Positions 27,937 to 52,805 of a stretch of DNA of 64,000 bases are shown here, one piece after another. Made by a program: the position numbers and the translations under genes. The notes beneath the pieces are model-generated. The model was not told the DNA's origin. It searched no databases and saw only the letters and a list, made by a program, of their open reading frames with translations. How positions within the stretch are numbered: position 1 is the stretch's first letter; the number at the start of each line of letters is the position of its first letter. The DNA is from an uncultured Gemmatimonadales bacterium (GTDB lineage Bacteria; Gemmatimonadota; Gemmatimonadetes; Gemmatimonadales; GWC2-71-9): the NCBI GenBank assembly GCA_963730185.1, contig CAVSQW010000007.1:352001-416000 (forward strand), in the 5' to 3' direction.

Positions 27937-28695
27937 ATGCTGATCTCCTGCGCCGGTGACACCCACGTCGGGGTGGTGCGAAGCGGAAACGAGGACAGCT
28001 TCCTGCTCGACTTCCAGCAGGGCGTCTTCATCGTGGCCGACGGCATGGGCGGGCACGCCGCCGGCGAGGTCGCGAGCGAGATGGCGGTCGAGATCATCGC
28101 GCGGGAGCTGGGCTCGATGCGGGGCCTCGACGCCGCCGCGGCCGGCGACCGGATGCGAAACGCGATCCGGGTGGCCAACGGCGCGATCTTCGACCGGACC
28201 CTGGCCGAAGCCGACAAACGGGGCATGGGGACCACCACCACGGTGCTGGTCCTCTTCAGCGGCCGCTACCTGATCGGCCAGGTGGGTGACAGCCGGGCCT
28301 ATATGCTCCGGGACCAGACGCTCCACCAACTCACCAAGGACCACAGCTACGTCCAAGAGCAAGTCGACGCCGGGTTGCTCACCGCCGAACAGGCCCGGAC
28401 CCATCCCTACAGCAACGTGATCACCCGCTGCGTGGGGGCCAATGAGGACGTGGTGCCTGACGTCTACTTCGGCGACCTGGCCAGCGGCGACGTCATCCTG
28501 CTCGCGTCCGACGGGCTGACCGGCATGCTGGAAGACGAACACCTCGCCAAGATCCTGTCGAGCGATGGTAACCCGGCCACCTGGGTCAGCCGGATGATCG
28601 CCGAGGCCAATCGGCGCGGCGGACTCGACAACATCACCGCCATCATCGTCCGGGTCGACGAGGCCGACACGCCGGCTCGAACCTCGGCGGGATGA
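27937..28695 (+). CDS. Stp1/IreP-type PP2C Ser/Thr phosphatase
   Basis: RSGNED, VADGMGGHAAGEVAS, GMGTT, VGDSRAY, SDGL, GGLDNIT. Confidence 0.95.
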   Translation: MLISCAGDTHVGVVRSGNEDSFLLDFQQGVFIVADGMGGHAAGEVASEMAVEIIARELGSMRGLDAAAAGDRMRNAIRVANGAIFDRTLAEADKRGMGTTTTVLVLFSGRYLIGQVGDSRAYMLRDQTLHQLTKDHSYVQEQVDAGLLTAEQARTHPYSNVITRCVGANEDVVPDVYFGDLASGDVILLASDGLTGMLEDEHLAKILSSDGNPATWVSRMIAEANRRGGLDNITAIIVRVDEADTPARTSAG

Positions 28696-34792: not shown

Positions 34793-36058
34793 CTAGTTCC
34801 GGCGGCGGAGCCAGTCGGTGGGGTCGAGGGCGATCTGGTTCTCGCCCCGGATCTCGAAGTAGAGGTGGGGCCCGTCGGGCGTGTTGCTGCCGCCGACGGT
34901 GCCGATCGTCTGGCCTTTGGCGACCGAGGCGCCCACCTGCACGCTGGCCGTGCTGAGCTGCATGTAGAGCGAGTAGTATCCCGTCGAGTGCTCGAGAATC
35001 ACCGAGAGCCCATAGGTCCCGAGTCGCTGGACCAGGACCACGTTGCCGTCCGCCACCGCGGTCACCTGGCTGCCGGCCGAGGCCGCGATGCTGATCCCGT
35101 GGCGGGTGATCTTGCCGCCGCTGGCCAGGGTGTCGGGACCGAAGGTGTGGATGATCCGCCCCTCCACCGGCCAGTCGAGCCGGCCGATGTCGCGGGTGGA
35201 GAGCCCGCGCTCTGCGGCGCTCCGGCTGTTGCTGGCGGCGGGGGCGCTCTTTCGGGCCCGCTCCAGCGAGGCGAGCACGTCGATCAGGTTCTCTTCGTCC
35301 TTGGCCAGATCGCTCAGGCGCCGGGCGGTGCTGGCGCTGGTCCGCCTGAGCTGGCGGATCTTCTGGGACCGTTCCTGGGCCAGCTCTTTGTAGCTCGCCA
35401 GCTCGGTTTCCCGCTCGTGCCGCCGGCGGTCGAGCTGATCCTGCACCCGGACCAGCTCCCCGCGCTGGTTTTGGATCCGGTTCCGGAGGCGTTCCACGTC
35501 GATCACCACCGCCCGGTCCTGCCGGCTGGTCAGGAAGAGGTACTTGTAGCGGGAGAGCAGGTCGCCGAACGATTCGGCCGAGAGCAGGACCTTGAAGGTG
35601 TAGAGCGGACCCCGCTTGTAGATCTCCACCAGTCGCCGTTCCAGGACCGCCCGTCGCTCGGCCAGGTTGTCCTCGGCCAGCGCCAGCTGGGTGCTGGCGT
35701 CGTCGAGCTGGGTGCCGAGGCCGCCGATCTGCCGCTCCAGCTCGTTGACGATCCGGTTGGTCGTTTCGCGCTGCCGTTCCAGGTTGTCGAGCTCCCGGCC
35801 GGCATCGCGTACCTGGCTCTGGAGGCGCTCCTGCTCCTGGCGGAGCCGCTCGCGCTCGGCCCGGATCTGCTCCAGCCGCTGCCGGCTCTTGTCGAGGTCC
35901 TGCTGGGCGGTCAGGCGGGGGGCCACGGTCGCGAGCGCAAGGCCGGCCAGGATCGCGGCCAGCGCGGCCGGACGCCAGCGCCGCCTCCGACCCGCTCCCG
36001 TCCGGGGTCCGGCCGGGAGCGTTCCGCTGGCGCGGTCGCGAGCCGTCGGCGCCGCCAT
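34793..36058 (-). CDS. envC: Murein hydrolase activator EnvC (coiled coil + degenerate M23)
   Basis: Signal peptide, long coiled coil, WPVEG, M23 domain lacking Zn ligands (HLYFE); follows ftsX. Confidence 0.88.
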   Translation of the reverse strand: MAAPTARDRASGTLPAGPRTGAGRRRRWRPAALAAILAGLALATVAPRLTAQQDLDKSRQRLEQIRAERERLRQEQERLQSQVRDAGRELDNLERQRETTNRIVNELERQIGGLGTQLDDASTQLALAEDNLAERRAVLERRLVEIYKRGPLYTFKVLLSAESFGDLLSRYKYLFLTSRQDRAVVIDVERLRNRIQNQRGELVRVQDQLDRRRHERETELASYKELAQERSQKIRQLRRTSASTARRLSDLAKDEENLIDVLASLERARKSAPAASNSRSAAERGLSTRDIGRLDWPVEGRIIHTFGPDTLASGGKITRHGISIAASAGSQVTAVADGNVVLVQRLGTYGLSVILEHSTGYYSLYMQLSTASVQVGASVAKGQTIGTVGGSNTPDGPHLYFEIRGENQIALDPTDWLRRRN

Positions 36059-36068
36059 TGCCCGGGGC

Positions 36069-36944
36069 TCAGACGTTCCGGAGATGTCGGCCCACGCTGA
36101 GCACGCTCCCGCCCAGCCCGATGACCGTGCCGAAGACGAGCGCCATGATCAGCTCGCCGGTGGAGAAGAACACCAGGGGAGACCCGGCCGTGGCCGCACT
36201 CTTCCGAAAGATCACGAAGGTGATCCAGCACATCAGGATGGCGAGCCCGCCACCGAGTACGCCCTTGACCGCGCCTTCGATCAGGAACGGCCCCCGGATG
36301 TAGGAGTTGGTGGCTCCGACCAGCCGCATGATCGCGATCTCCGTGGCCCGCTGGAGCACCGTGATCCGGATCGTCACCCCGATGATCACCACCGCCACCG
36401 CCGCGAATGCCAGGCCGATCACCAGCCCGACCACCCCGGCCATGTTCCGGAGCCGGTCCAGGCGCTCCACCCAGTCGCGACCGTAGCGGACGTCCTCGAT
36501 GAAGGGAAAGCCGCGGAGCCGCTCCGCCACCTGCCGAGCGTGCTCGGCGTCGCGAAAGCCGGGCTTGAGCCGGATCTCGAACGAGGCCGGCAGGGGATTG
36601 ATCTCGAGGTCCCGGAAGGCGTCCTGGAACTCCACCAGCTCCTGACGGGCCCGGGCCAGGGCCTGGTCCGCGTTGACGTACTTGATGTCGAGGACCTCGG
36701 GGAAGGCCGCGATGTCCGTGGAGGCGGTGCTGATGGTCTCGGTCGGCGTTCCCCGGAGCACGAAGGCCACCACCTCGACCCGCTCGGCCAGGGTGTGGAG
36801 CGCTTCCCGGAAGTTGATCGCCACCAGCCCGAAGAGGCCGATCGTGAAGAGCGAAAAGGCGATCGACGCGACCGAGAGCCCCGAGAGGAGCGGGGTCCGC
36901 TTGAAGGTGAGCAGCGCCTCGCGGAGGGGGCTCCTCCGTCTCAC
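36069..36944 (-). CDS. ftsX: Cell division permease FtsX
   Basis: NPLPASFEI, EIAIMRLVGAT..YIRGPFLIEG. Confidence 0.93.
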   Translation of the reverse strand: MRRRSPLREALLTFKRTPLLSGLSVASIAFSLFTIGLFGLVAINFREALHTLAERVEVVAFVLRGTPTETISTASTDIAAFPEVLDIKYVNADQALARARQELVEFQDAFRDLEINPLPASFEIRLKPGFRDAEHARQVAERLRGFPFIEDVRYGRDWVERLDRLRNMAGVVGLVIGLAFAAVAVVIIGVTIRITVLQRATEIAIMRLVGATNSYIRGPFLIEGAVKGVLGGGLAILMCWITFVIFRKSAATAGSPLVFFSTGELIMALVFGTVIGLGGSVLSVGRHLRNV

Positions 36945-37627
36945 GCGAAGCCTCCCCCGACGTCGACGCTCGAGTCGTAGACGATCTCGCCGCCCTTGAG
37001 CTCGACCACCCGATAGCCCGTGTCGCGGACCAGCTCCATGTCGTGAGTCGCCATGACCACCACCGTTCCGCCTCCGTTGATCTCGCGCAGCAGCTGGAAG
37101 ATGCCCCGGGTGGCGCGCTCGTCGAGGTTCCCGGTGGGCTCGTCCGCGATCAGGATGTGAGGGTCGTTCACCAGCGCTCGGGCGATGGCGACCCGCTGCT
37201 GCTCGCCGCCCGAGAGCTCCTTCGGGTGCGACCGGGCCTTGGAGGCGAGCCCCACCTGGGTCAGGGCCCGCATCACCCGATTCGGGATCGTCTCCCGGCG
37301 GGCCCCGGTCACCTCGAGCGCGAAGGCGACGTTCTCTTCCACTGTGTGATACTCGAGCAGCCGAAAATCCTGGAAGACCACCCCGAGCCGGCGCCGGAGC
37401 CGGGGAATGTCCTTGGGGCCCAGCTTGCTGACGTGGTAGCCCGAGACCCGAACCTCGCCGGAGGTCGGCTTCTGCTCGGCATAGAGCATCGCCAGCACGG
37501 TGGACTTCCCCGCCCCCGAGTGGCCGGTCAGGAAGACGAACTCGCCCTTCGGGATGTGGAACGAGACGTTCCGGAGCCCGACCACGCCGTTGGGAAAGAG
37601 CTTGGAGACGCCCGTGAACTTGATCAT
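36941..37627 (-). CDS. ftsE: Cell division ATP-binding protein FtsE
   Basis: GHSGAGKST, GVVFQDFRLL, LSGGEQQR, ADEPTGNLD. Confidence 0.95.
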   Translation of the reverse strand: MIKFTGVSKLFPNGVVGLRNVSFHIPKGEFVFLTGHSGAGKSTVLAMLYAEQKPTSGEVRVSGYHVSKLGPKDIPRLRRRLGVVFQDFRLLEYHTVEENVAFALEVTGARRETIPNRVMRALTQVGLASKARSHPKELSGGEQQRVAIARALVNDPHILIADEPTGNLDERATRGIFQLLREINGGGTVVVMATHDMELVRDTGYRVVELKGGEIVYDSSVDVGGGFA

Positions 37628-38781
37628 GGCCCCGCCAGCGCCTGGGCCAGGTCGTCGATCAGATCGGCCGGGTCCTCGACGCCGCAACTCAGTCGGACGA
37701 AGCCGTCGTCGATTCCCATCGCCCGCCGGCCGTCGGCGTCGAGTCCGGCGTGGGAGGTGAGCCGGGGCTCGGAGACCAGGCTCTCCACCCCGGCCAGGCT
37801 GGGCGCGTGGGTGAAGATCCGGAGCCGCCGGAGGAAGCGCTCCGCGGCGCTGGTGCCGCCCTCGATCACCAGGCCGACCATGCCGCCGAATCCGTCCAGC
37901 ACCCGGGCGGCGATCTCGTGATCGGGATGCCCGGGCAGGCCAGGGTAGTGCACGGCGGCGACCCGTTCGTGCTCCGCCGCCCACCCGGCCACCGCGAGGC
38001 CGTTGGCGTTCTGCCGCTCCATTCGGATGGCGAGGGTCTTCAGGCCCCGGTCCAGGAGCCAGGCCGCCTCGGGATCGATCGCGGAGCCCCAGGAGCGCAT
38101 CAGGCGGACCACCTCGTCGATCAGCGATTGGGTGCCGGCCACCGCGCCGGCCGTCACGTCGCTGTGCCCGTTGAGGTACTTGGTCCCGCTGGTGATGACC
38201 ACGTCGGCGCCGTGCTCGATCGGTCGGAAGTTGATCGGGCTTGCGAAGGTGGAGTCCACCAGCAGGGCCAGCCCGTACTCCTTGGCGATCTGAGCCACCG
38301 GCACCGGATCGATCACCCGCATCGTGGGATTGGTGGGCGACTCGAAGAAGATGGCCCGGGTGTTTGCGGTGACGCCCCGGCGCCATTCGCGGGGATGATT
38401 GGGGTCCACGTAGCCCACCGTGATCCCCAGCCGGCCGAACTCCTCGTCGAAGAGCTTCCGGGTGCCGCCGTAGATCCAGGAACTGGTGATCAGGCGGTCG
38501 CCCGGACGGAGCACCGCCAGATGGGCCAGCGCCGTCGCCGCCATCCCGCTCCCCAGGAGCACGGCGCCCTCGGCGCCCTCGAGGAGGGCGTACTTCCGGG
38601 CCACGCTCAGTTGGTTGGGGGTGTTGCCGTACCGGGCGTACATCACTTCCAGGTCGGAGCCCACCGCGTTGACGTACGTGGTGGACCGGATCAACGGGGC
38701 CACCACCGGCTCGTCGGGATGGTGCCGCTGGAGGTGTCCGTGCACGGACACGGTCGATCGTCCCAGCTGGCGGCCGCTCAT
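37624..38781 (-). CDS. Cys/Met-metabolism PLP enzyme (cystathionine gamma-synthase / methionine gamma-lyase family)
   Basis: YARYGN, SGMAA, YGGT, ESPTNP, DSTFASP, SGTKYLNGHSD, SLAGVESL. Confidence 0.92.
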   Translation of the reverse strand: MSGRQLGRSTVSVHGHLQRHHPDEPVVAPLIRSTTYVNAVGSDLEVMYARYGNTPNQLSVARKYALLEGAEGAVLLGSGMAATALAHLAVLRPGDRLITSSWIYGGTRKLFDEEFGRLGITVGYVDPNHPREWRRGVTANTRAIFFESPTNPTMRVIDPVPVAQIAKEYGLALLVDSTFASPINFRPIEHGADVVITSGTKYLNGHSDVTAGAVAGTQSLIDEVVRLMRSWGSAIDPEAAWLLDRGLKTLAIRMERQNANGLAVAGWAAEHERVAAVHYPGLPGHPDHEIAARVLDGFGGMVGLVIEGGTSAAERFLRRLRIFTHAPSLAGVESLVSEPRLTSHAGLDADGRRAMGIDDGFVRLSCGVEDPADLIDDLAQALAGP

Positions 38782-39320
38782 GCGGTGGGTAACGGACGGA
38801 AGGTTCCCGACGCGGCCTGCACCAGCCCGCGGAGGGCGAGCGACTGGAGCGCGTCGGCGGCCCGCTCGATGGTCCAGCCCAACTCGTCGGCCAGCCGGCC
38901 GGCGTCACCGGGGCCGATCCGGTTCGCCGCCTCGAACGCGGCCACCAGGTCGGGGGTCCGCCAGCCGACCATGCAGGGCGGCGCCTCGGGCCCGGCGGAC
39001 GCGATCACGGTCAGGTGGTGCGTCTCGAGCACGTGCTCGATCGCCTCGAGGTGCGACTCGCCCACGTTCACCAGCACCACGAAGCGGGGGCGGTCGCGCT
39101 CCCCGTTCAGGATCAGCTTGGCGACCACTTCGTCGGCGCAGCTGAAATCGAGCAGGCCGATGGCGTCGAAATCGAGCTGCGCGGTAGGATGGGGGCTGGC
39201 CGCGATCCGGGCCTCGATTCGGCCCCGGACCGCCGCGCCGGTCGACCGGGTCACCAGATCGGAATAGGGAGTGGTCACGGTCTCGCGGAGTAGCCGGGCC
39301 AGCTCGATTCGCTCCATCAT
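38778..39320 (-). CDS. STAS-like (DUF4325-type) + winged-helix protein, CapS-like
   Basis: LVTRSTG..VR, LDFDAIGLLDFSCADEVVAKL STAS motif; C-terminal AGRLADELGWTIERAADALQSLALRGLV HTH/wing. Confidence 0.78.
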   Translation of the reverse strand: MMERIELARLLRETVTTPYSDLVTRSTGAAVRGRIEARIAASPHPTAQLDFDAIGLLDFSCADEVVAKLILNGERDRPRFVVLVNVGESHLEAIEHVLETHHLTVIASAGPEAPPCMVGWRTPDLVAAFEAANRIGPGDAGRLADELGWTIERAADALQSLALRGLVQAASGTFRPLPTA

Positions 39321-40219
39321 CGGCCGTGCGCCTCCTGAGCGGGAATGGTGAGGGCGAGCTGTGAGCCCGGGAAGAACGGCAGCTGCTCGGCCAGGGGGAC
39401 GTCGTCGTCCCAATCGGGCACGACAGCCAGTCGGGCCGTGCCGCTCCGGATCGAGATCTTGCCGTGCCAGCGGAGCAGGTAGCGCTTGATGCCCGCCAGG
39501 CCCTGTCCCCGTCCTGGGTCGCGGAACCGGCTCACGCCGTGTAATAGGGCCGATTCGAGCGCGGCGCCGTCGCCCCAACGCTCGCCGACCTTCCGGGCCT
39601 CGGTGCTCTCGAGCGAGCGGCGAAAGCCGATGCCGGCGTCGCTCACCGCGATCACGACCACTTTTCGCCCTAATCGCCGACGCCAGAGATAGGTCTGGAC
39701 CGCGACCCATCCGCCCGTGCCGGCATGCTCCACAATATTCTGACATGCCTCCGAGAGCGCCATCGCGAAGCCCATCGTGGCCTTCGCCTCCAGCTTGAGC
39801 TCCGAGGTAAGGATCCGCACCGCGCTTTCCTGGACCCGTCCCACGACCTGGTGAACGTCTTCCGCCGCTTTGACGGCGGTGACCGGAAGCAAGACATCCG
39901 ACGGGGCATCCTCGGCTCGTCTAGGAATCTTGCCAACCAGGTCGAAATACTCCACCGCATGGCCGAAGAAGCCGGCTCGGCTCCAGTACGACCGAGTGTC
40001 GTCGTGCTCGGGCACGGTGAACCGGGGCTTGGGCAGGCCGAGCTCGGCGATGGCCTGGCCCACCGTGAGGAGGGCGGTGAGCCCATACGGCGAGGCCCAC
40101 TGCGTGCCCCGGGCATCGAGGAGGAGCCGCTCCGCCGGCGGCCAGTCACCGAAGCCCATCGCCAGCTGGTCGAGGGAGCGATCGTCGAGCGAAGTCGGCA
40201 CGGGCACGACGTGCATCAT
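39317..40219 (-). CDS. STAS + HATPase_c anti-sigma-type Ser kinase, CapK-like
   Basis: N-terminal LLLDARGTQWASPYGLTALL...SYWSRAGFF; N-box EACQNIVEHA, G1 DAGIG, G2 GRGQGL, FPGS; no HisKA domain. Confidence 0.82.
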   Translation of the reverse strand: MMHVVPVPTSLDDRSLDQLAMGFGDWPPAERLLLDARGTQWASPYGLTALLTVGQAIAELGLPKPRFTVPEHDDTRSYWSRAGFFGHAVEYFDLVGKIPRRAEDAPSDVLLPVTAVKAAEDVHQVVGRVQESAVRILTSELKLEAKATMGFAMALSEACQNIVEHAGTGGWVAVQTYLWRRRLGRKVVVIAVSDAGIGFRRSLESTEARKVGERWGDGAALESALLHGVSRFRDPGRGQGLAGIKRYLLRWHGKISIRSGTARLAVVPDWDDDVPLAEQLPFFPGSQLALTIPAQEAHGR

Positions 40220-41181
40220 GGCGTCACCAGCGATCCGCGAAGATGGGACGCGAGGCCCGAGGCCCCGCGGAAGGTGGCATTCCGGGCGGCGGCCTGCGAC
40301 GCCCGCTTGACCGCGACCTCGATCGTCGCCCCGCCGAGGAGGTGCGCGAACGCCGTCGCGCCGAACACGTCGCCGCACCCGGTCGGGTCGATGGCGTCGA
40401 CCGCGGGGGCCGCGAGCCGGGCGGTCCGAACCGCCAATCCAGTCCGTCCCGCCGCCCGCCCGTCGGCGCGTCCGTCCCCGAGCCGGGCGAACCCGGGCGC
40501 CGCCAGGTAGACCGCGCCCTGCGGTCCCAGGGTCACCAGCAGGGCCGACACGCCCCGGTCCAGCATCCCGGTGGCGAGGCCGAGCGGATCGACCGAGAGC
40601 TCGCGCATCTCGTCCTCGTTGACCTGAATCAGGTCGAAGCACGCGAACCAGCTCGGGGCATCGGGGAGCGGCTGGAGGCTCCGGAGCCCGTCGCCGCCCA
40701 TCCCGAGGAGGAGGCTGTGGAGATCGGCGTAGATCCAGCCCCCGAACCCCTGGCGCAGCGCCACCGCGGTCCCGAGCCCGAGCTCGAAGCCGGAGATGAA
40801 GTTCAGGTAGAGGGCGTCGAGGTCGCCCACCATCGGTCCCAACTCCTCCCAGCTCCAGGGCGGCACCCCGCCCGACATCCGCTCGCAGCGCCGCTCGCTC
40901 GATTGATAGCGGAGCACCACCCGGTTGTTGGGGGTCGGCACGATGGTGAAGCGGGCGGTCGGGGCGGCCCGGGTCAGGGTTCGGAGAAAGCGGTCGGCCG
41001 GCTCGGCCAGGTCGCGTCCCACCTTGATGACCGGGACCAGCTCCCAGTCGGAGGGCAGCGCCGCGTCGAGACCGGCCAGGGCGTAGGCGATGCCGCCCCA
41101 CTCCTCGACCGGCGGCGCGGCCGGGTCACGTCCGTGGATCTCGTCCCAGACCAGGGACCCGATCACGCCGACCCTAGGCAT
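40216..41181 (-). CDS. PfkB-family carbohydrate kinase
   Basis: WGG, QVNEDE, VTLGPQG, DPTGCGDVFG. Confidence 0.88.
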   Translation of the reverse strand: MPRVGVIGSLVWDEIHGRDPAAPPVEEWGGIAYALAGLDAALPSDWELVPVIKVGRDLAEPADRFLRTLTRAAPTARFTIVPTPNNRVVLRYQSSERRCERMSGGVPPWSWEELGPMVGDLDALYLNFISGFELGLGTAVALRQGFGGWIYADLHSLLLGMGGDGLRSLQPLPDAPSWFACFDLIQVNEDEMRELSVDPLGLATGMLDRGVSALLVTLGPQGAVYLAAPGFARLGDGRADGRAAGRTGLAVRTARLAAPAVDAIDPTGCGDVFGATAFAHLLGGATIEVAVKRASQAAARNATFRGASGLASHLRGSLVTP

Positions 41182-42142
41182 GCGCCTCGAGGAAGATCCG
41201 CGCCGCTCCCACCACGCCGGCCGTGCCCGGGAGCTCGCCCGGCACGATCCGGCAGGCCTGGACCGCGGGCTTGAAGGCCCGGCGGGCCACCTCCCGGCGG
41301 AGCGGCCCGAAGAGTCGGTCGCCGGCTCGGGTGACGCCCCCGCAGATCACCACGACCTCCGGATTCAGGATGTTGATCAGGTTGGCGACGCCGGTGCCGA
41401 GATACCGGGCCGTGTCCTGCACCACCTCGAGCGCCAGGGGATCGCCGTCGGCCGCGGCCTCGTAGACCGTCTGGGCCGTGATCCGGGACGGGTCGTTGCC
41501 GGCGATCAGGGCGAGGACGGTCTCGGCCCCGGCCTCGATCGCCTCGACCGCCCGTCGAGCGATGGCCGGGCCCGAGGCGTAGGCCTCGAGGCAGCCGTCG
41601 TTGCCGCAGCTGCACCGCCGCCCGTTGGTGTCGATGGTGATGTGGCCGATCTCGCCGGCCACGTCGGAGGCGCCGTGGTAGAGCTTGCCGTCGATGATCA
41701 GCCCACCGCCGACCCCAGTGCCGAGGGTGAACGCCACGGCGTGACGGGCGCCCCGCGCGGCACCGAGCCACCATTCACCCATCAAGGCGCAGTTGGCGTC
41801 GTTGTCGAGGCTGGCGGGCAGGGCGAGCCGGGTCGAGATCCGGTCCCGAAGGGGCATGTTGGACCAGCCCAGATTCGGCGTCAGGATCACCACCCCGCTC
41901 CGGGTGTCGAGCGGTCCCGGCGAGCCGATCCCGGCCCCGGCGATCTTGGCGGCCGGGTCGACCCGGCGGGTGGCGGCGATGCTGGCCTGGGCCATCGTCA
42001 CGATCCGGTCCACCACCGCGTCGGCCCCGTGGGCGGCCCCGGTGGGTTCGGTGTGGAGGCCCTCCACCCGGGAGCCGTCCTCGGCCACGGCCCCGACCAC
42101 CAGGTTGGTGCCTCCGATGTCGATCCCCAGCACGTAGCGCAT
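41174..42142 (-). CDS. ROK-family sugar kinase (glucokinase-like)
   Basis: GIDIGGT, NDAN, GTGVGGG, GEIGH, CSCGNDGCLE. Confidence 0.93.
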   Translation of the reverse strand: MRYVLGIDIGGTNLVVGAVAEDGSRVEGLHTEPTGAAHGADAVVDRIVTMAQASIAATRRVDPAAKIAGAGIGSPGPLDTRSGVVILTPNLGWSNMPLRDRISTRLALPASLDNDANCALMGEWWLGAARGARHAVAFTLGTGVGGGLIIDGKLYHGASDVAGEIGHITIDTNGRRCSCGNDGCLEAYASGPAIARRAVEAIEAGAETVLALIAGNDPSRITAQTVYEAAADGDPLALEVVQDTARYLGTGVANLINILNPEVVVICGGVTRAGDRLFGPLRREVARRAFKPAVQACRIVPGELPGTAGVVGAARIFLEAHA

Positions 42143-42151
42143 GGTCCCCGC

Positions 42152-43141
42152 CTAACGTATCAGCGCGGTGATCGCCTCGTGGACGGCCGTCGCCGGAATT
42201 TCGCGCATGCAGCGGTGATGCCCCAGGGGGCAGCGGGCCGGTCCGTGGGCCGAGCAGGGCCGGCAGCCCAGGTCGGTCCGTTCCACCACGGCGGCCGCCG
42301 GACCGCGGGGGCCGAAGCCCAGCCGGGGGGCCGTGGGTCCGAAGATCACCACCACCGGCGTTCCGACGGCGCTCGCCAGGTGGAGCGGGGCGGAGTCGTT
42401 GGTGACCAGCACGGCGGCCCGCTCGATCAGGGCCGCCGAGACTCGGAGCGAGGCCTGTCCCACCGCGCTCGCCACCCGGTCCGGCGCCGCGTCCACCAGC
42501 CTAGCCGCCAGCGGCGCGTCCTCGGGTCCGCCCACCACCACGATCCGCCCGCCCACCAGCTTCACCAGATCGGGAAACGCCGGCCAGCGCTTGGTGGCCC
42601 ACACCGAGCCCGGCGCCAGCGCCACGAACCCGTCGCCGACGCCCCGGTCGGCCAGCCAGGCGTAGGCCTCGGCCCGATCGTCGTCGGTGAGCCCGAGGCT
42701 CACCTCCGCGACGGTGCCGGGCGCCGGCTCCGCGAGCGCCAGCAACCGCTCGGCCTCGTGGGCGCCGGCCGGGCGGGCGATCCGCCGGGTCTGGAGCCAG
42801 GCTCCGGTGCCGTCCCGGAAGCCGATCCGCTCGGGGATCCCGGCCAGCCGCGCCAGCAAAGCGGTCCGGAGCGAGCGGTGCGGCAGGTAGGCCCGCCGGT
42901 AGCCCCGCCGACGGAGTCGGCGGGCCATGCGCTGGAGCCCGCCCAGGCCCCGATCCCGCCCCCGCTTGTCGAACCCGAAGGCCGCGGCGACCGCGGGATG
43001 GGTCTCGACCAGCGGTACCGCGGCCGGCCGGACCAGGACGTCCACCGGCCCGTGCCGCCGGGCCAGCGCCGTCAGGAGTCCGGTGGAGAGCACCACGTCG
43101 CCAAGGAACGCGGTCTGGATCACCAGCGTGTCGCTCGGCAC
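42152..43141 (-). CDS. waaF: LPS heptosyltransferase II-like glycosyltransferase (GT9)
   Basis: QTAFLGDVV, APGSVWATKRWP, TNDSAPLHLA, FGPT, CRPC..HG..CPLGHHRCM. Confidence 0.85.
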   Translation of the reverse strand: MPSDTLVIQTAFLGDVVLSTGLLTALARRHGPVDVLVRPAAVPLVETHPAVAAAFGFDKRGRDRGLGGLQRMARRLRRRGYRRAYLPHRSLRTALLARLAGIPERIGFRDGTGAWLQTRRIARPAGAHEAERLLALAEPAPGTVAEVSLGLTDDDRAEAYAWLADRGVGDGFVALAPGSVWATKRWPAFPDLVKLVGGRIVVVGGPEDAPLAARLVDAAPDRVASAVGQASLRVSAALIERAAVLVTNDSAPLHLASAVGTPVVVIFGPTAPRLGFGPRGPAAAVVERTDLGCRPCSAHGPARCPLGHHRCMREIPATAVHEAITALIR

Positions 43142-43152
43142 CGCGGACTCGC

Positions 43153-44955
43153 TCAGTCTCCCACCTGGAGCACGGCCAGAAACGCCTCCTGCGGAATCTC
43201 CACGGCGCCGACCTGCTTCATCCGTTTCTTGCCTTCCTTCTGCTTCTCCAAGAGCTTCCGTTTCCGGGTTACGTCGCCGCCGTAGCACTTGGCCAGCACG
43301 TCCTTCCGGAGGGCGGAGATGGTCTCCCGGGCGATGATCTTGTTGCCGATCGCCGCCTGGACGATCACCTGGAAGAGCTGGCGCGGGATCAGCTCCTTGA
43401 GCTTCTCGGCCACCTTGCGGCCCCACTCGTACGCCTTGTCGCGATGGATGATCACGCTGAAGGCGTCGATCTGCTCGGTGTTGATCAGCATGTCGAGCTT
43501 GACCAGCTCCGACGGCCGGTAGCCGGCCATCTCGTAGTCGAGCGAGGCGTAGCCCCGGGAGAGCGACTTGAGCCGATCGTAGAAGTCGAGCACGATCTCG
43601 CCCAGGGGGAACTCCCACTGGAACTCGACCCGGGCGGGGTCGACGTAGTGCATCCCGAGATACACCCCCCGCCGGTCCTGACCCAGCTTCATGATCCCGC
43701 CGATGTAGTCGGCCGGGGCCAGGATCCGGGCCTTCACGAACGGCTCCTCGATCCGCTGGATGGTGGCGGGGTCGGGCAGGGTGGACGGGTTCTCCACCAG
43801 GGCCGACTCGCCGCTGGTCAGGAAGACGTGATACTCGACCGTCGGCACGGTGGTGATCAGGTCGAGGTCGAACTCCCGCTCGAGGCGTTCCTGGACGATC
43901 TCCATGTGGAGCAGCCCCAGGAACCCGCAGCGAAAGCCGAAGCCCAGGGCGGTGGACGATTCCGGCTCGTACTTGAGGCTGGCGTCGTTGAGCTGGAGCC
44001 GTTCCAGGGCGTCGCGGAGCGACTCGTACTGGTCGGTGGTGGTCGGGTACACGCCCGCGAACACCATCGACTTCACCTCGCGGTAGCCGGGCAGGAGCTC
44101 GGCGACCGGGTGGTCGGCGTCCAGCACGGTGTCACCCACCCGGGCGTCGCGGACCTCCCGGATGCTGGCCACCAGGTACCCGACCTCCCCGGCCAGGAGC
44201 TCCTCGCAGCGGCGCTGGCCGAGCGCCAGGTACCCCACCTCGTCCACCTCGTAGCGGTCCTGCGGGCGGGCGCCGAACCGGATGTTCATCCCCTGACGGA
44301 TGGCGCCGTCCACCACCCGGATGCTGGGGATCGCGCCCCGGTAGCGATCGTAGTACGAGTCGAACACCAGTCCGCGGAGCGGGGCGTCGGGGTTGCCCCG
44401 GGGTGCCGGGACCCGGCTCACGATCGCCTCCAGCAGGTCCGGCACCCCGGTGCCTTCCTTGGCCGAGACGGCCAGGATCTCGTCCTTCCGCACCCCGAGC
44501 AGGTCGCGGAGCTCCTCGGCCCGCTTGTCCGGCTCGGCGCCCGGGAGGTCGATCTTGTTGAGCACCGGGATGATCTCGAGGTTGGCCTCGAGCGCCAGGA
44601 ACAGGTTGCTGAGGGTCTGCGCCTGGGGCCCCTGCGAGGCGTCGACCACCAGGATGGCCCCCTCACACGCCGCCAGCGACCGCGACACCTCGTAGGTGAA
44701 GTCGACGTGGCCCGGGGTGTCGATCAGGTTGAGCTCGTAGGTCTCGCCGTCCCGGGCCTTGTAGGACATCCGGACGGCGTTGAGCTTGATCGTGATCCCC
44801 CGCTCCCGCTCCAGGTCCATGGTGTCGAGGACCTGTTCCCGCATCCGCCGCTTCTCCAGCGTACCGGTCGCCTCGATCAGGCGATCGGCCAGCGTGGATT
44901 TGCCGTGGTCGATGTGGGCGACGATGCAGAAATTCCGGATTCGTGACTGCGCCAT
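43153..44955 (-). CDS. lepA: Translation elongation factor 4
   Basis: [50 protein letters not shown]. Confidence 0.98.
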
Positions 44956-45004
44956 GGCACGAATATAGTCGGGCGAGACTGGCGCCCCCCAATAGATTAC
45001 GGCG

Positions 45005-49529: not shown

Positions 49530-52500
49530 TGCTCCAGCCGGTTCTCGACGCCTTCGCCCGGACCCGGTTCGCCCGGGAGCTGGTCGACCGGCTGCCCGCG
49601 CCCGGTGCCTCGGTCCGCCTGGGCGGTCTGGCCGGCTCGAGCCAGGCCGTGCTCGCGGCCTGGCTGGCCGAGCTCGAGCCGACCCGGCCGGTGGTGATCG
49701 TCGCCACGACCCCGGCCGACGCCGAGCGGTGGCTGGCCGACCTCTCCCACCTGACGGAACTCCCGACCGCGCTCTACCCCCAGCGCGAGGCGCTCGGCGA
49801 AGAGGAACCGCACCTGGAGATCGCGGGGGAGCGGGCCGAGACCCTGGAAGCCCTGCTGGGTGGCCGGCTCCGGATCCTGGTCACCACCGCCCGTGCCACG
49901 GCGGAGCGTACCACCCTGCCGGGCGCCCTGGCGGCCCACCGGTTCGAGTTGACCCGGGGCGCCAGCCTCCCGCCCCGCGAGGTGGCGGAACGACTCGAGA
50001 CCATGGGATTCGAGCGGGTTGCCACGGTCACCGAGGTCGGCCAGTTCAGCGTTCGCGGGGGCATCATCGATCTTTACGGGTTCGGGATGCCGGCCCCGGC
50101 CCGCTGCGAATGGTGGGGCGACGAGCTCGAGACGCTCCGGGCCTTCGATCTCACCACCCAGCGGAGCGGCGACGAGCTCCCCGCGGTGACCGTGCTGCCG
50201 GTCCGGACACCGCCGCCGGAGGGATCGGGCGGTCCCGGCGTCCGCACCTCGCTCCTCGAGCTGATCCCGTTGGGCGCCCTGACGCTGGTGGAGTCGCCGA
50301 CCGCCAACGCCGAGGAGGTGGGGCGCGCCTGGCGGGAGGCCGAGCATCACCTCGACATCGCCCGGCGGCTGGGCGAAGAGGTGCCCCGGCGCGACGACCT
50401 GTTCGTCGATCCCGGAACGTGGCAGGGGCTGTCCGAACGGTTGGCGCGACTCTCGACCGCGGAGGCGGAGGTCGATCTCCAGGCCGGCTTCCTGCCGCCG
50501 GAGCGGGTGGACCGCGATCTCCGCCGGCTCCGGGCGCTGTTGGACGGCGGGCTCCCGACCCTGATTCTCTGCGACAACGAAGGCCAGCTCGAGCGGCTGA
50601 GCGAGCTCCTCGAGGAGCAGGGCCGACCGTCCTCGGCCACGCTGGCGGTCGGCGCCCTGGACGGCGGCTTCGTCATGCCGTCACTCCGGGTCCATACCGA
50701 TCACGAAATCTTCCGGCGGGCGCGGCGGCTCCGGCGGGCGCGCCGCTATCGTCAGGCCGCGCCGACGATGGCCATCGGGGCGCTCTCCAACGGCGACTAC
50801 GTGGTGCACCTCGATCACGGGATCGGGATCTATCGCGGAATCGCCGCGATCGAGATCGAGGGGGGCGTGCTCGAGGTCGCGGTGATCGAGTACGAGGGGG
50901 GCGACCGGCTCCATGTGCCCCTCTACCGGCTCGACCAGATCGAGCGGTACCGCTCGGCCGGCGGCGACACCGATCAGCCGCCGCCCCGGATCCATCGGCT
51001 GGGCGGCACCAGCTGGAAGAAGGCCCGCGAGAAGACCCGGGAGGCGATTCAGGAGATGGCGGCCGAGCTGCTCGACCTCTACGCCCGGCGGCAGGTGTCG
51101 GCGGGGTTCGCCTGCCCGCCCGACACCAAGTGGCAGCGCGAGCTGGAGTCGAGCTTCCTCTACGAGGACACCCCCGATCAGCGGAAGGCCACGGAGGACG
51201 TGAAGCACGATCTCGAGCGGCCGATCCCCATGGACCGGCTGCTGGTCGGCGACGTCGGGTACGGCAAGACCGAGATCGCGGTCCGGGCCGCCTTCAAGGC
51301 GGTCCAGGCCGGCAAGCAGGTGGCGGTGCTGGTGCCTACCACGATCCTGGCCGAGCAGCATGGACGGACCTTCACGGAGCGGTTCGCCGACTTCCCGGTC
51401 CGAATCGAGGTGCTGTCGCGATTTCGCACCGCCAAGGAGCAGAAGGCGGTGCTGGCCGAGCTGACCGAGGGCGCCGTCGACATCGTGATCGGCACCCACC
51501 GGCTGCTCTCGAAGGACGTGACCTTCAAGGATCTCGGCCTCCTGATCATCGACGAGGAGCACCGGTTCGGCGTGCGCCACAAGGAGCGGCTCAAGACCCT
51601 CCGGTTGGCGGTACACGTCCTGACCCTCACCGCCACGCCGATTCCCCGGACCCTCCACATGTCGCTGGCGGGGCTCCGCGATCTCACCCTGATCGAGACC
51701 GCGCCGCGCGACCGCTCGCCGGTGCTGACCTTCGTGGAGCCGTGGGACGACGGGCTCCTGGACGAGGCGTTCGCGCGGGAGCTGGACCGGGGGGGCCAGG
51801 TGTTCGTGGTCCATAACCGGATCGAGACGATCGAGACGATCGCCGCCCGGGTGAGCGCGCTGGCGCCCCGGGCCCGGGTGGCGGTGGCTCACGGTCAGAT
51901 GGCGGCCGACGCCCTCGACGAGGTGATGCGCCGGTTCGTGTCCGGGCGAGGTCGACATCCTGGTCTCGACGATGATCGTGGAGTCGGGATTGGACGTCCC
52001 CAACGCCAACACCATGGTGGTGAACGACGCCCACCGGTTCGGCCTGGCTCAGCTCTACCAGCTGCGGGGCCGGGTGGGCCGGAGTCATCGACGGGCCTAC
52101 TGCTACCTGATCACGCCCGACCTGATCGCCCTCGACGCGGAGGACCGGCTCCGGGTGCTGGAGCACCACACCGAGCTCGGGGCCGGGTACCGGATCGCGC
52201 TCAAGGACCTGGAGATTCGAGGGGCCGGCAACCTGCTGGGGCGGGAGCAGTCCGGGCATGCCCAGGCCGTCGGGTTCGATCTCTATCTCCGCTGGCTGGA
52301 GGAGACGGTCACGGCGCTCAAAGGCGGGGCCGGGATCGTGGAGGCGCCGGCGCCGCCCGACGTGGTATTCGACCGGGCCGCCCAGCTTCCGGATACCTAC
52401 GTGGACGACGACGACATCAAGTTGGACATCTACCGGCGACTGGCGCGGGCGGCTCGACCAGGTGAAATTGATGAGCTGCGCCAGGAGTTGCGGGAGCGGT

Positions 52501-52805
52501 TCGGGCCCCTGCCGCCGGAGGCCGAGAACCTGCTCAATCTCACCCGGCTCCGGGTCATCGGGGCAGCCCTTGGGATTCAACACATCCTGGTGCGGGGCGA
52601 CGAGGCGCGGGTGAGCTTCCGCGCCGGCACGGCCCCGCGCCTGGCTCGACTCACGGCCGCGCTGGACAACGTCCAGCTAGCGGCCGATGTACGGCGTACC
52701 GTCCCGTTGTCGCTCCGCTTGGTCCGCCTCGGCGGCGAGGAGATCGTCCCCGCCCTGGTGCGGGCCCTCCGGGCGGTCGACGGCGAGCAGTCTCGCGGGG
52801 TCTGA
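49529..52805 (+). CDS. mfd: Transcription-repair coupling factor; one apparent +1 indel near 51945
   Basis: VRGGIID, GDYVVHLDHGIG, GDVGYGKTE, DEEHRFG, TATPIPRT, QLRGRVGR, DLEIRGAG, TRCF domain. Confidence 0.95.

Follow-up and report, generated by a model that had tools for sequence, protein, structure and literature searches.

A kinase–STAS gene pair in a housekeeping operon

We examined two adjacent genes in a 64,000-nucleotide stretch of DNA (hereafter, the window) from an uncultured Gemmatimonadales bacterium (NCBI GenBank assembly GCA_963730185.1, contig CAVSQW010000007.1, positions 352,001 to 416,000). One gene encodes a kinase with a STAS-like N-terminal domain, and the other encodes its predicted substrate, a STAS protein that ends in a winged helix-turn-helix (wHTH) domain (Table 1). 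A preliminary description of the sequence had likened the pair to CapK/CapS, a kinase and a repressor found upstream of anti-phage operons, and had placed it between sugar kinases and waaF on one side and a metB-like gene, ftsE, ftsX and envC on the other. The neighbours and the reading frames proved to be as described, as did the quoted motifs and the ATGA overlaps on all sides of the pair (in addition to the overlap between the two genes, further ones lie at 40216-40219 and 38778-38781; direct sequence reading).

Structure prediction recovered the folds that had been proposed, namely STAS, GHKL and wHTH. The kinase matched HATPase_c (E 1.4e-7) and HATPase_c_2 (E 4.1e-6) in a Pfam scan, which gave no match to HisKA, and the best fold match of its model (predicted local distance difference test, pLDDT, 93.5) was SpoIIAB (Z 14.4, root-mean-square deviation (rmsd) 2.7, 135 aligned), followed by RsbW and UsfX. 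This agrees with the STAS-like plus HATPase_c architecture, without HisKA, that was first read from the translation. The substrate model (pLDDT 94.8) comprises a STAS domain at residues 1-113 (1vc1, Z 10.8; SpoIIAA, Z 9.3-9.6) and a wHTH fold at residues about 120-180 (Z 9-10). The folds of the substrate stood, and its label as a DUF4325-type protein found weak support: DUF4325 (PF14213) had no match in the window substrate and matched six of 43 orthologs weakly, at E up to 0.1 (best E 5.7e-4). Single-sequence searches of the PDB returned no match for the kinase and only one weak wHTH match for the substrate. The serine codon singled out earlier encodes Ser60, at the phospho-acceptor position, and this residue and the surrounding STAS face are invariant in 43/43 orthologs.

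Table 1 Features of the kinase–substrate pair and its operon (window coordinates)
Feature	Position	Strand	Remarks
Kinase gene, 300 aa	39317..40219	-	STAS-like N-domain and SpoIIAB-type GHKL; no HisKA, no N-terminal HTH; VapK-like architecture, CapK homolog
Kinase N-terminal STAS-like domain, residues 1-97	39929..40219	-	Model vs 1vc1: Z 9.9, rmsd 2.5, 91 aligned
Trp41 of kinase	40097..40099	-	Aromatic in 46/46 class orthologs
GHKL kinase domain, residues 106-297	39329..39904	-	E157, N161, H165, D194, G196, R237, G238, G240 invariant, 46/46 orthologs
Basic beta-hairpin of kinase, residues 175-186	39662..39697	-	Aligned with CapK K237/K239 hairpin
ATGA stop/start overlap, kinase/substrate genes	39317..39320	-	Direct sequence reading
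Substrate gene, 180 aa	38778..39320	-	STAS and winged helix; CapS homolog
LVTRxTG motif, residues 22-28	39237..39257	-	L22, V23, T24, R25, T27, G28 invariant, 43/43; common to Nitrospirota-type relatives
Ser60 (AGC codon), predicted phospho-acceptor	39141..39143	-	Aligned with CapS Ser54
Winged-helix domain, residues 121-177	38790..38960	-	Net charge -1, short wing
Recognition helix, residues 151-163	38832..38870	-	No T-R pair as in CapS and outside relatives; class-variable, strongly conserved in the window's branch
PfkB-like kinase gene	40216..41181	-	Overlaps kinase start; most constant neighbour of the pair
ROK kinase gene	41174-42142	-	Upstream in operon (41174..44955 block)
WaaF-like glycosyltransferase gene	42152-43141	-	Upstream in operon
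lepA	43153-44955	-	Upstream in operon
TATATT -10-like element	44962..44967	-	6 nt before lepA start; compared by eye across loci
Cys/Met pyridoxal phosphate (PLP) enzyme gene	37624-38781	-	Downstream in operon (34793..38781 block)
ftsE-like gene (ABC ATPase)	36941-37627	-	Downstream in operon
ftsX	36069-36944	-	Downstream in operon
envC-like gene	34793-36058	-	Downstream in operon

Remote homology to CapK and CapS

In the accessible part of the study that describes these systems (Chambers, Rani, Min, Villa, Corbett; EMBO J 2026, PMC13373217), CapK is an HTH-STAS-GHKL kinase that single-stranded DNA (ssDNA) activates through Trp68 and whose N-terminal HTH is dispensable. CapS (structures 9Z71-9Z73) is the STAS-wHTH repressor that receives the phosphate, on Ser54; its homodimer is broken by phosphorylation, and it binds palindromes in the capK-capS intergenic promoter and in the downstream immune promoter. 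The same source describes VapK, which has no HTH and in which Phe54 is the predicted ssDNA-stacking residue, and VapS, which blocks the PIN toxin VapC (PDB 9Z7O). Its capKS table, as far as accessible, contains no Gemmatimonadota or Nitrospirota name.

Using CapK and CapS from an E. coli capKS-Bub locus as references, hhalign aligned our kinase profile with P 98.3 and E 1.8e-14, beginning at CapK residue 67, and our substrate profile with P 85.7 and E 5.5e-6, with Ser54 falling on Ser60. In a PDB sequence search, the substrate profile also matched the CapS structure 9z71 best (E 0.0088, with an ArsR nearly tied); this structure was not among the 50 best matches of the fold search, which is no argument against a fold relation. 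By these profile comparisons, the two proteins are remote homologs of CapK and CapS along the greater part of their lengths, at about 20% identity.

The pair resembles CapK/CapS, or VapK/VapS, at the kinase step. As in CapK/CapS, the kinase gene lies immediately before the STAS-wHTH gene, the kinase joins STAS and GHKL domains and carries a basic hairpin (net charge +2 to +6 in 46/46 kinase orthologs, +4 in CapK), and both the kinase asparagine (CapK N218, here N161; 46/46) and the acceptor serine (CapS S54, here S60; 43/43) are conserved. As in VapK, the kinase is a STAS-GHKL protein without an HTH. Its aromatic Trp41 may correspond to VapK Phe54: Trp41 precedes a conserved proline by three residues, as Phe54 does in the printed VapK sequence (compared by eye, allowing for a five-residue numbering offset). 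The aromatic residue at position 41, the basic hairpin, Tyr177 and Arg/Lys185 (the latter two each kept in 46/46 orthologs) are candidate ssDNA-site residues. The GHKL serine kinase fold without HisKA and the STAS substrate with its acceptor serine on helix 2 are also shared with SpoIIAB/SpoIIAA and RsbW/RsbV; unlike in those systems, the kinase bears an extra STAS domain, the substrate bears a wHTH, and no sigma factor or phosphatase is linked.

The differences from CapK/CapS are equally consistent. The window kinase has neither the N-terminal HTH nor Trp68, and the positions of the CapS DNA contacts N145, K151 and G169-G170 are variable and often acidic in Gemmatimonadota, with the GG wing not conserved. 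There is no intergenic promoter or palindrome at the Gemmatimonadota kinase–substrate junction and no adjacent immune operon, and, rather than a mobile regulator, the pair is a core one of most of the class, with housekeeping synteny. Because the kinase HTH, Trp68, the DNA-contact residues, the operator and the immune operon are missing, we do not class the pair as CapKS; the proposed match to this system, itself a real one, held as far as the homology of both proteins. From VapKSC the pair differs in having no PIN toxin at the locus, in that most orthologs retain the wHTH fold, and in its core location as opposed to a defence island. A literature search of titles and listings, with subscription journals mostly outside its coverage, found no description of the Gemmatimonadota pair.

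The surroundings of the pair contained no toxin, sigma factor or immune gene, as first noted. Among the 18 neighbouring proteins (27.9 to 52.5 kb), we found no defence system; the domain cross-hits were all generic ones (ATPase, helicase, permease, phosphatase). Sigma-factor and toxin families were missing as well, save generic ATPase cross-hits of FtsE, and so was any PIN protein, the next gene after the substrate being that of the Cys/Met PLP enzyme. A PADLOC match of the kinase itself to DrmA (E 6e-10) covered 147 of 1750 model positions and was rejected as a domain cross-hit. Searched against plasmids, the kinase returned three distant matches. Elsewhere in the window, a PP2C phosphatase gene lies 10 kb from the pair (27937-28695, +), and an mfd-like reading frame (~51900-52805, +) shows a frame change near 51.9-52.0 kb, a possible frameshift or sequencing error.

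A core locus of the class

The substrate was detected in 40/41 genomes of the order (the one missing it is 73% complete) and in 121/121 genomes of the family, so the pair is not a chance finding. The cluster names of close homologs point to a Gemmatimonadales host. Of 201 phylum genomes, 184 had the kinase, comprising 183/183 genomes of eight families (f1-f8) plus the host, a tally that takes in one unpublished genome (G179); it was found in 0/2 genomes of a sister family, f9, and in 0/15 genomes of other classes. A single kinase match was present in 175 of the 184 positive genomes, and a profile search of 18 kinase-negative genomes yielded three weaker matches, the two stronger of which lie in other contexts. 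In a tree of 70 kinases, the 27 from Gemmatimonadota formed one branch (Shimodaira–Hasegawa-like approximate likelihood ratio test, SH-aLRT, 100), splitting Gemmatimonadales from the other orders. With its presence throughout f1-f8 and its fixed synteny, this is a core locus, in line with the earlier suggestion of a domesticated pair.

We surveyed the synteny of these loci. The order ROK-pfkB-kinase-substrate, then ftsE-ftsX-envC, was conserved in 20/20 loci and in 10 further Gemmatimonadales genomes, that is, in 30/30 with enough sequence (one contig that ends inside the kinase was left out). In the other orders, ftsE was absent from 15/15 loci (one with just 2 kb downstream), the PLP enzyme followed the pair in 8, and pfkB preceded it in 13. 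Both f9 genomes encode lepA-(waaF)-ROK-pfkB-metB and then ftsE-ftsX, with neither kinase nor substrate between pfkB and metB. Given this pair-less operon and the loci of other orders that lack ftsE, the ftsEX neighbourhood belongs to the operon whether the pair is present or not; the conserved adjacency that had been anticipated holds in Gemmatimonadales and not in other orders. In 47 of 66 loci the kinase and substrate genes share a 4-nt overlap, and in most others they are separated by gaps of <45 nt, by our own start calls and with 20 loci from one genus and one locus counted twice.

Upstream, the TATATT element is likely the operon's leaderless promoter, as judged from its sequence and from its position just before the lepA start, which suggests a leaderless transcript. 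In most Gemmatimonadales loci a TATATT -10-like element precedes the lepA start by 5-9 nt; it is found farther upstream in other families. Footprinting across loci by eye showed this conserved element in the lepA promoter region and no conserved palindrome beside it, and no promoter-like site was found between the pair and ftsE, where the genes overlap.

The survey also revealed several local variations. The PfkB-like kinase (40216-41181), which has a Pfam match in its C-terminal part only, is kept beside ROK across the phylum. Two f8 genomes carry a cyclophilin-like gene (labelled by reading the sequence) between kinase and substrate (L042:7505-7975, -; L061:9711-10253, +), and in family f2 a conserved gene of ~100 codons overlaps the substrate stop (L024, L027, L029, L030, L032, L035, L037, L056-L058). 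In one assembly (G105) the whole operon is present twice, as divergent copies, one with a shortened substrate (L049 and L050; contamination is possible). Family f7 encodes a distant kinase paralog of 417 residues (L069:7594-8847, L072:7525-8775, L073:7650-8900), which adjoins lipoate-ligase-like and glycine cleavage genes (labels by reading the sequence) and beside which no STAS-wHTH partner was seen.

Relatives outside the phylum carry a predicted operator

To place the pair among its relatives, genome contigs were scanned with a 10-protein alignment, an earlier 27-protein outside alignment being too diverse for a locus scan. Among the best 80 of 501 matching stretches, 19 were Gemmatimonadota loci and 61 came from outside the phylum (Nitrospirota, Desulfobacterota-like, NC10, Nitrospinota and Brocadiae; L081-L139, L141, L144). 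The outside loci among the matches listed have the LVTRx[ST]G and D[FY]SC[AS]DE signatures and the kinase motifs in common with the Gemmatimonadota pair. Their recognition helix is conserved and basic, with T156, R/K157, N160 and K163 each present in 28/28 sequences and the T and R common to CapS; this comparison covered the 28 full-length sequences of 33, leaving out four truncated or frameshifted ones and a Nostoc protein.

Past the kinase stop, the outside loci have a TTGACA-type (sigma70-type) promoter and, overlapping it, the palindrome TTCAATTGAA, frequently as tandem copies. Of 57 outside loci (four of the 61 were too short), 31 contain an exact copy within 400 nt of the kinase stop, seven an exact copy further downstream, and five a copy with one mismatch; upstream, no exact copy occurred in 279,535 nt. 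Across five whole genomes of relatives, the tandem operator is present at most once per genome (in 3/5) and the promoter-plus-palindrome form 1-3 times. Behind this promoter, restriction-modification or toxin-antitoxin genes were found in at least 16 of the 61 loci (cluster representatives scanned). The other cargo, often located between kinase and substrate, includes repair-type genes: cinA-thpR-recA, rmuC, mutS and a DinG-type helicase. From these sequence features, the outside relatives look like working CapKS-type local repressors, and apparently form an undescribed CapKS-like repressor clade with a predicted operator. A literature search on the operator word returned nothing relevant by title, again with subscription journals mostly outside coverage.

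Unlike these pairs, those of Gemmatimonadota have no conserved basic recognition helix, no sigma70-type promoter with TTCAATTGAA after the kinase gene, and no defence or repair cargo. The palindrome occurred in none of 86 Gemmatimonadota loci (1.0 Mb), which are G+C-rich, so that its absence carries information at the junction alone; the host genome contains one exact copy, in an A+T-rich stretch far from the locus. At the junction itself, the 4-nt overlap of kinase and substrate genes leaves no space for the promoter and operator found at this position in CapKS and in the outside relatives.

Several features of the outside loci are of interest in their own right. Examples of the predicted operator are L126:6830-6880, L133:6820-6865 and L144:2085-2140; ORF6N genes are also among the cargo, and the kinase–substrate gap of this clade resembles an insertion hotspot. 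In several Nitrospirota (L108, L119, L120, L126, L136; e.g. L126:6821-12773), an operator-bearing promoter lies upstream of the substrate and (pgpA)-cinA-thpR-recA-pilT; to judge from this arrangement, recA of these bacteria may be under the control of a kinase–STAS switch. One operator-bearing Nitrospiraceae genome (G282) gave no lexA match. On a Nostoc plasmid (L079:3995-8855), a kinase–STAS-wHTH pair precedes an E2/ThiF gene; it is likely a CapKS locus, and is not named in the published capKS table as far as accessible.

Reshaping and loss of the winged helix in Gemmatimonadota

The recognition helix has followed a different course in the two groups. Within Gemmatimonadota its pairwise identity (0.35) is lower than that of the STAS domain (0.49), whereas in the outside relatives it is higher (0.70 against 0.59). 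The wing measures 7-9 residues in Gemmatimonadota and 12-17 in the outside relatives, and the helix has a net charge of zero or below in 38/43 Gemmatimonadota orthologs, compared with +3 in CapS. Among 20 genomes picked for low score, 19 encode substrates of 141-149 residues from which the HTH is deleted; they span 12 genera and retain only the end of the last helix and a hairpin, resembling VapS in their STAS domain plus short C-terminal helix. CapS and the outside clade have helix residues in common, and the alignment is therefore most simply read as a loss of these residues in Gemmatimonadota.

A predicted switch on a protein partner

We interpret the pair, with a probability of roughly 0.5, as a CapK/CapS-related module, fixed in a core operon of most of the class, whose phospho-switch acts on a protein partner rather than on transcription. 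A partner protein is the likely target because the pair lacks the repressor-binding site of the closest relatives found. Kinase and substrate would, with high probability, be produced from the lepA operon in roughly 1:1 amounts and make up a pair of the SpoIIAB/SpoIIAA type, in which the kinase likely phosphorylates Ser60 of the STAS protein. By analogy with CapK, we lean slightly towards activation by ssDNA bound in the groove between the STAS and GHKL domains. The output would, by a similarly slight preference, be a partner switch at the STAS face that is invariant, much as VapS releases VapC, with the partner encoded elsewhere or among the operon enzymes; the phosphate on Ser60 would likely release or recruit this partner instead of switching off a repressor. 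We infer that the present state derived from a CapKS-like local repressor after loss of the promoter and operator.

Several observations weigh against this interpretation. Trp68 of CapK is not conserved, either here, where the aligned position is a variable one (Ser10), or in the outside clade; Trp41 may substitute for it, the equivalence with VapK Phe54 resting on the by-eye comparison, and the accessible part of PMC13373217 contains no biochemical demonstration of ssDNA activation for VapK. Kinase binding alone can explain the invariance of the STAS face. The 70-kinase tree is the product of a quick search, with no tested root and with CapK as a long branch. No partner protein was identified: a search for fused forms returned 20 long proteins, and the 10 that were read looked like frameshift read-throughs, chimeras or kinase–substrate joins, with no informative partner fusion. 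Finally, among 19 sequences from the window's genus, no segment of the substrate is as conserved as the recognition helix (amino-acid difference 0.08, compared with 0.22 in the STAS core), its synonymous divergence is normal (0.46 against 0.45), and about seven genera carry a similar helix (3 of 28 loci were not parsed). Such strong conservation means that the domain is functional in the window's branch, where the winged helix does something, possibly DNA binding. It has been re-fixed there with a new, neutral-to-acidic sequence, and its ligand may be either a protein or a novel DNA site.

More tentatively, the switch on a protein partner could be taken one step further: early in the history of the class, an ssDNA-sensing kinase from phage defence may have been acquired on a single occasion, have lost promoter and operator, and have been converted from controlling transcription to serving as a post-translational checkpoint for DNA stress. 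By phosphorylating the STAS protein, it would then activate or shut down a core enzyme or process of the cell.

Alternative explanations

The conservation of the helix bears most directly on the possibility that the substrate is still a phospho-controlled DNA binder, in the window's branch if not elsewhere, whose new recognition helix reads new (possibly G+C-rich) genomic sites, the HTH-less forms being secondary losses. We consider this rather unlikely, even though the wHTH fold is predicted with high confidence, both helix and wing are under strong purifying selection in the genus, and Glu, Arg and Asp are able to read bases. No autoregulatory site was found at the kinase–substrate junction or, by eye, at the lepA promoter, and the near-uniqueness of the relatives' tandem operator within their genomes points to an ancestral target that was local and is gone here. 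The wHTH domain is net acidic with a short wing, and across the class its recognition helix is variable and has been deleted in 12 genera though both genes stay. The same evidence speaks against the initial view of the substrate as a DNA-binding transcription regulator.

The closeness of the kinase to SpoIIAB, RsbW and UsfX suggests another arrangement, in which the kinase is the effector, as in SpoIIAB/RsbW. The STAS antagonist would hold the kinase, and phosphorylation would free it for another target (a sigma factor or STAS protein), in response to a signal that may be ATP/ADP or a metabolite rather than ssDNA. The kinase is indeed more conserved than the substrate, sugar kinase genes are its neighbours, and the host genome encodes a SpoIIE-type phosphatase. 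This explanation is nevertheless improbable, as there is no sigma factor at the locus, the synteny survey showed no linked cognate phosphatase, and the kinase has a CapK-type N-terminal STAS domain and C-terminal extension and groups with CapKS-like proteins.

The preliminary description had instead proposed a LexA-independent link from DNA damage to septal wall remodelling, that is, a transcriptional or direct switch controlling ftsEX-envC. The location of ftsE-ftsX-envC within about 3 kb downstream of the pair in all 30 Gemmatimonadales genomes with enough sequence, and the apparent co-transcription of all the genes, would suit such a role. It became very improbable once other orders were considered, as ftsE is missing from all 15 pair-bearing loci there and the f9 operon has ftsEX without the pair; moreover, no promoter-like site lies between the pair and ftsE, and the genes overlap. 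Nor did LexA independence hold, since lexA is present in the host and in 40/41 genomes, and the pair is therefore no stand-in for a missing SOS repressor. Least credible of all is a pair kept passively or as an addiction-like module with no host signalling role (for instance, a substrate that neutralises a harmful kinase), which the tight translational coupling and the restriction and toxin-antitoxin genes beside relatives might suggest, but which is opposed by the selection for a host function implied by its retention at one site in all f1-f8 genomes, its vertical-looking tree and an identity of 44-82%.

Implications

The 2026 descriptions of CapK/CapS and VapKSC, in the accessible part of PMC13373217, present them solely as mobile regulators that govern immune or toxin genes. 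In Gemmatimonadota, the kinase–STAS unit is a near-universal core pair of an abundant and poorly studied class. The change between the two states is traceable: the relatives look like local repressors with an operator and defence or repair cargo, whereas the Gemmatimonadota pairs are without the operator and have a DNA-reading helix that is reshaped or deleted. If the kinase still senses ssDNA, the pair would represent an undescribed post-translational DNA-stress output. Should the checkpoint reading be true, a bacterial ssDNA-activated checkpoint kinase would exist beside RecA-LexA across most of Gemmatimonadota.

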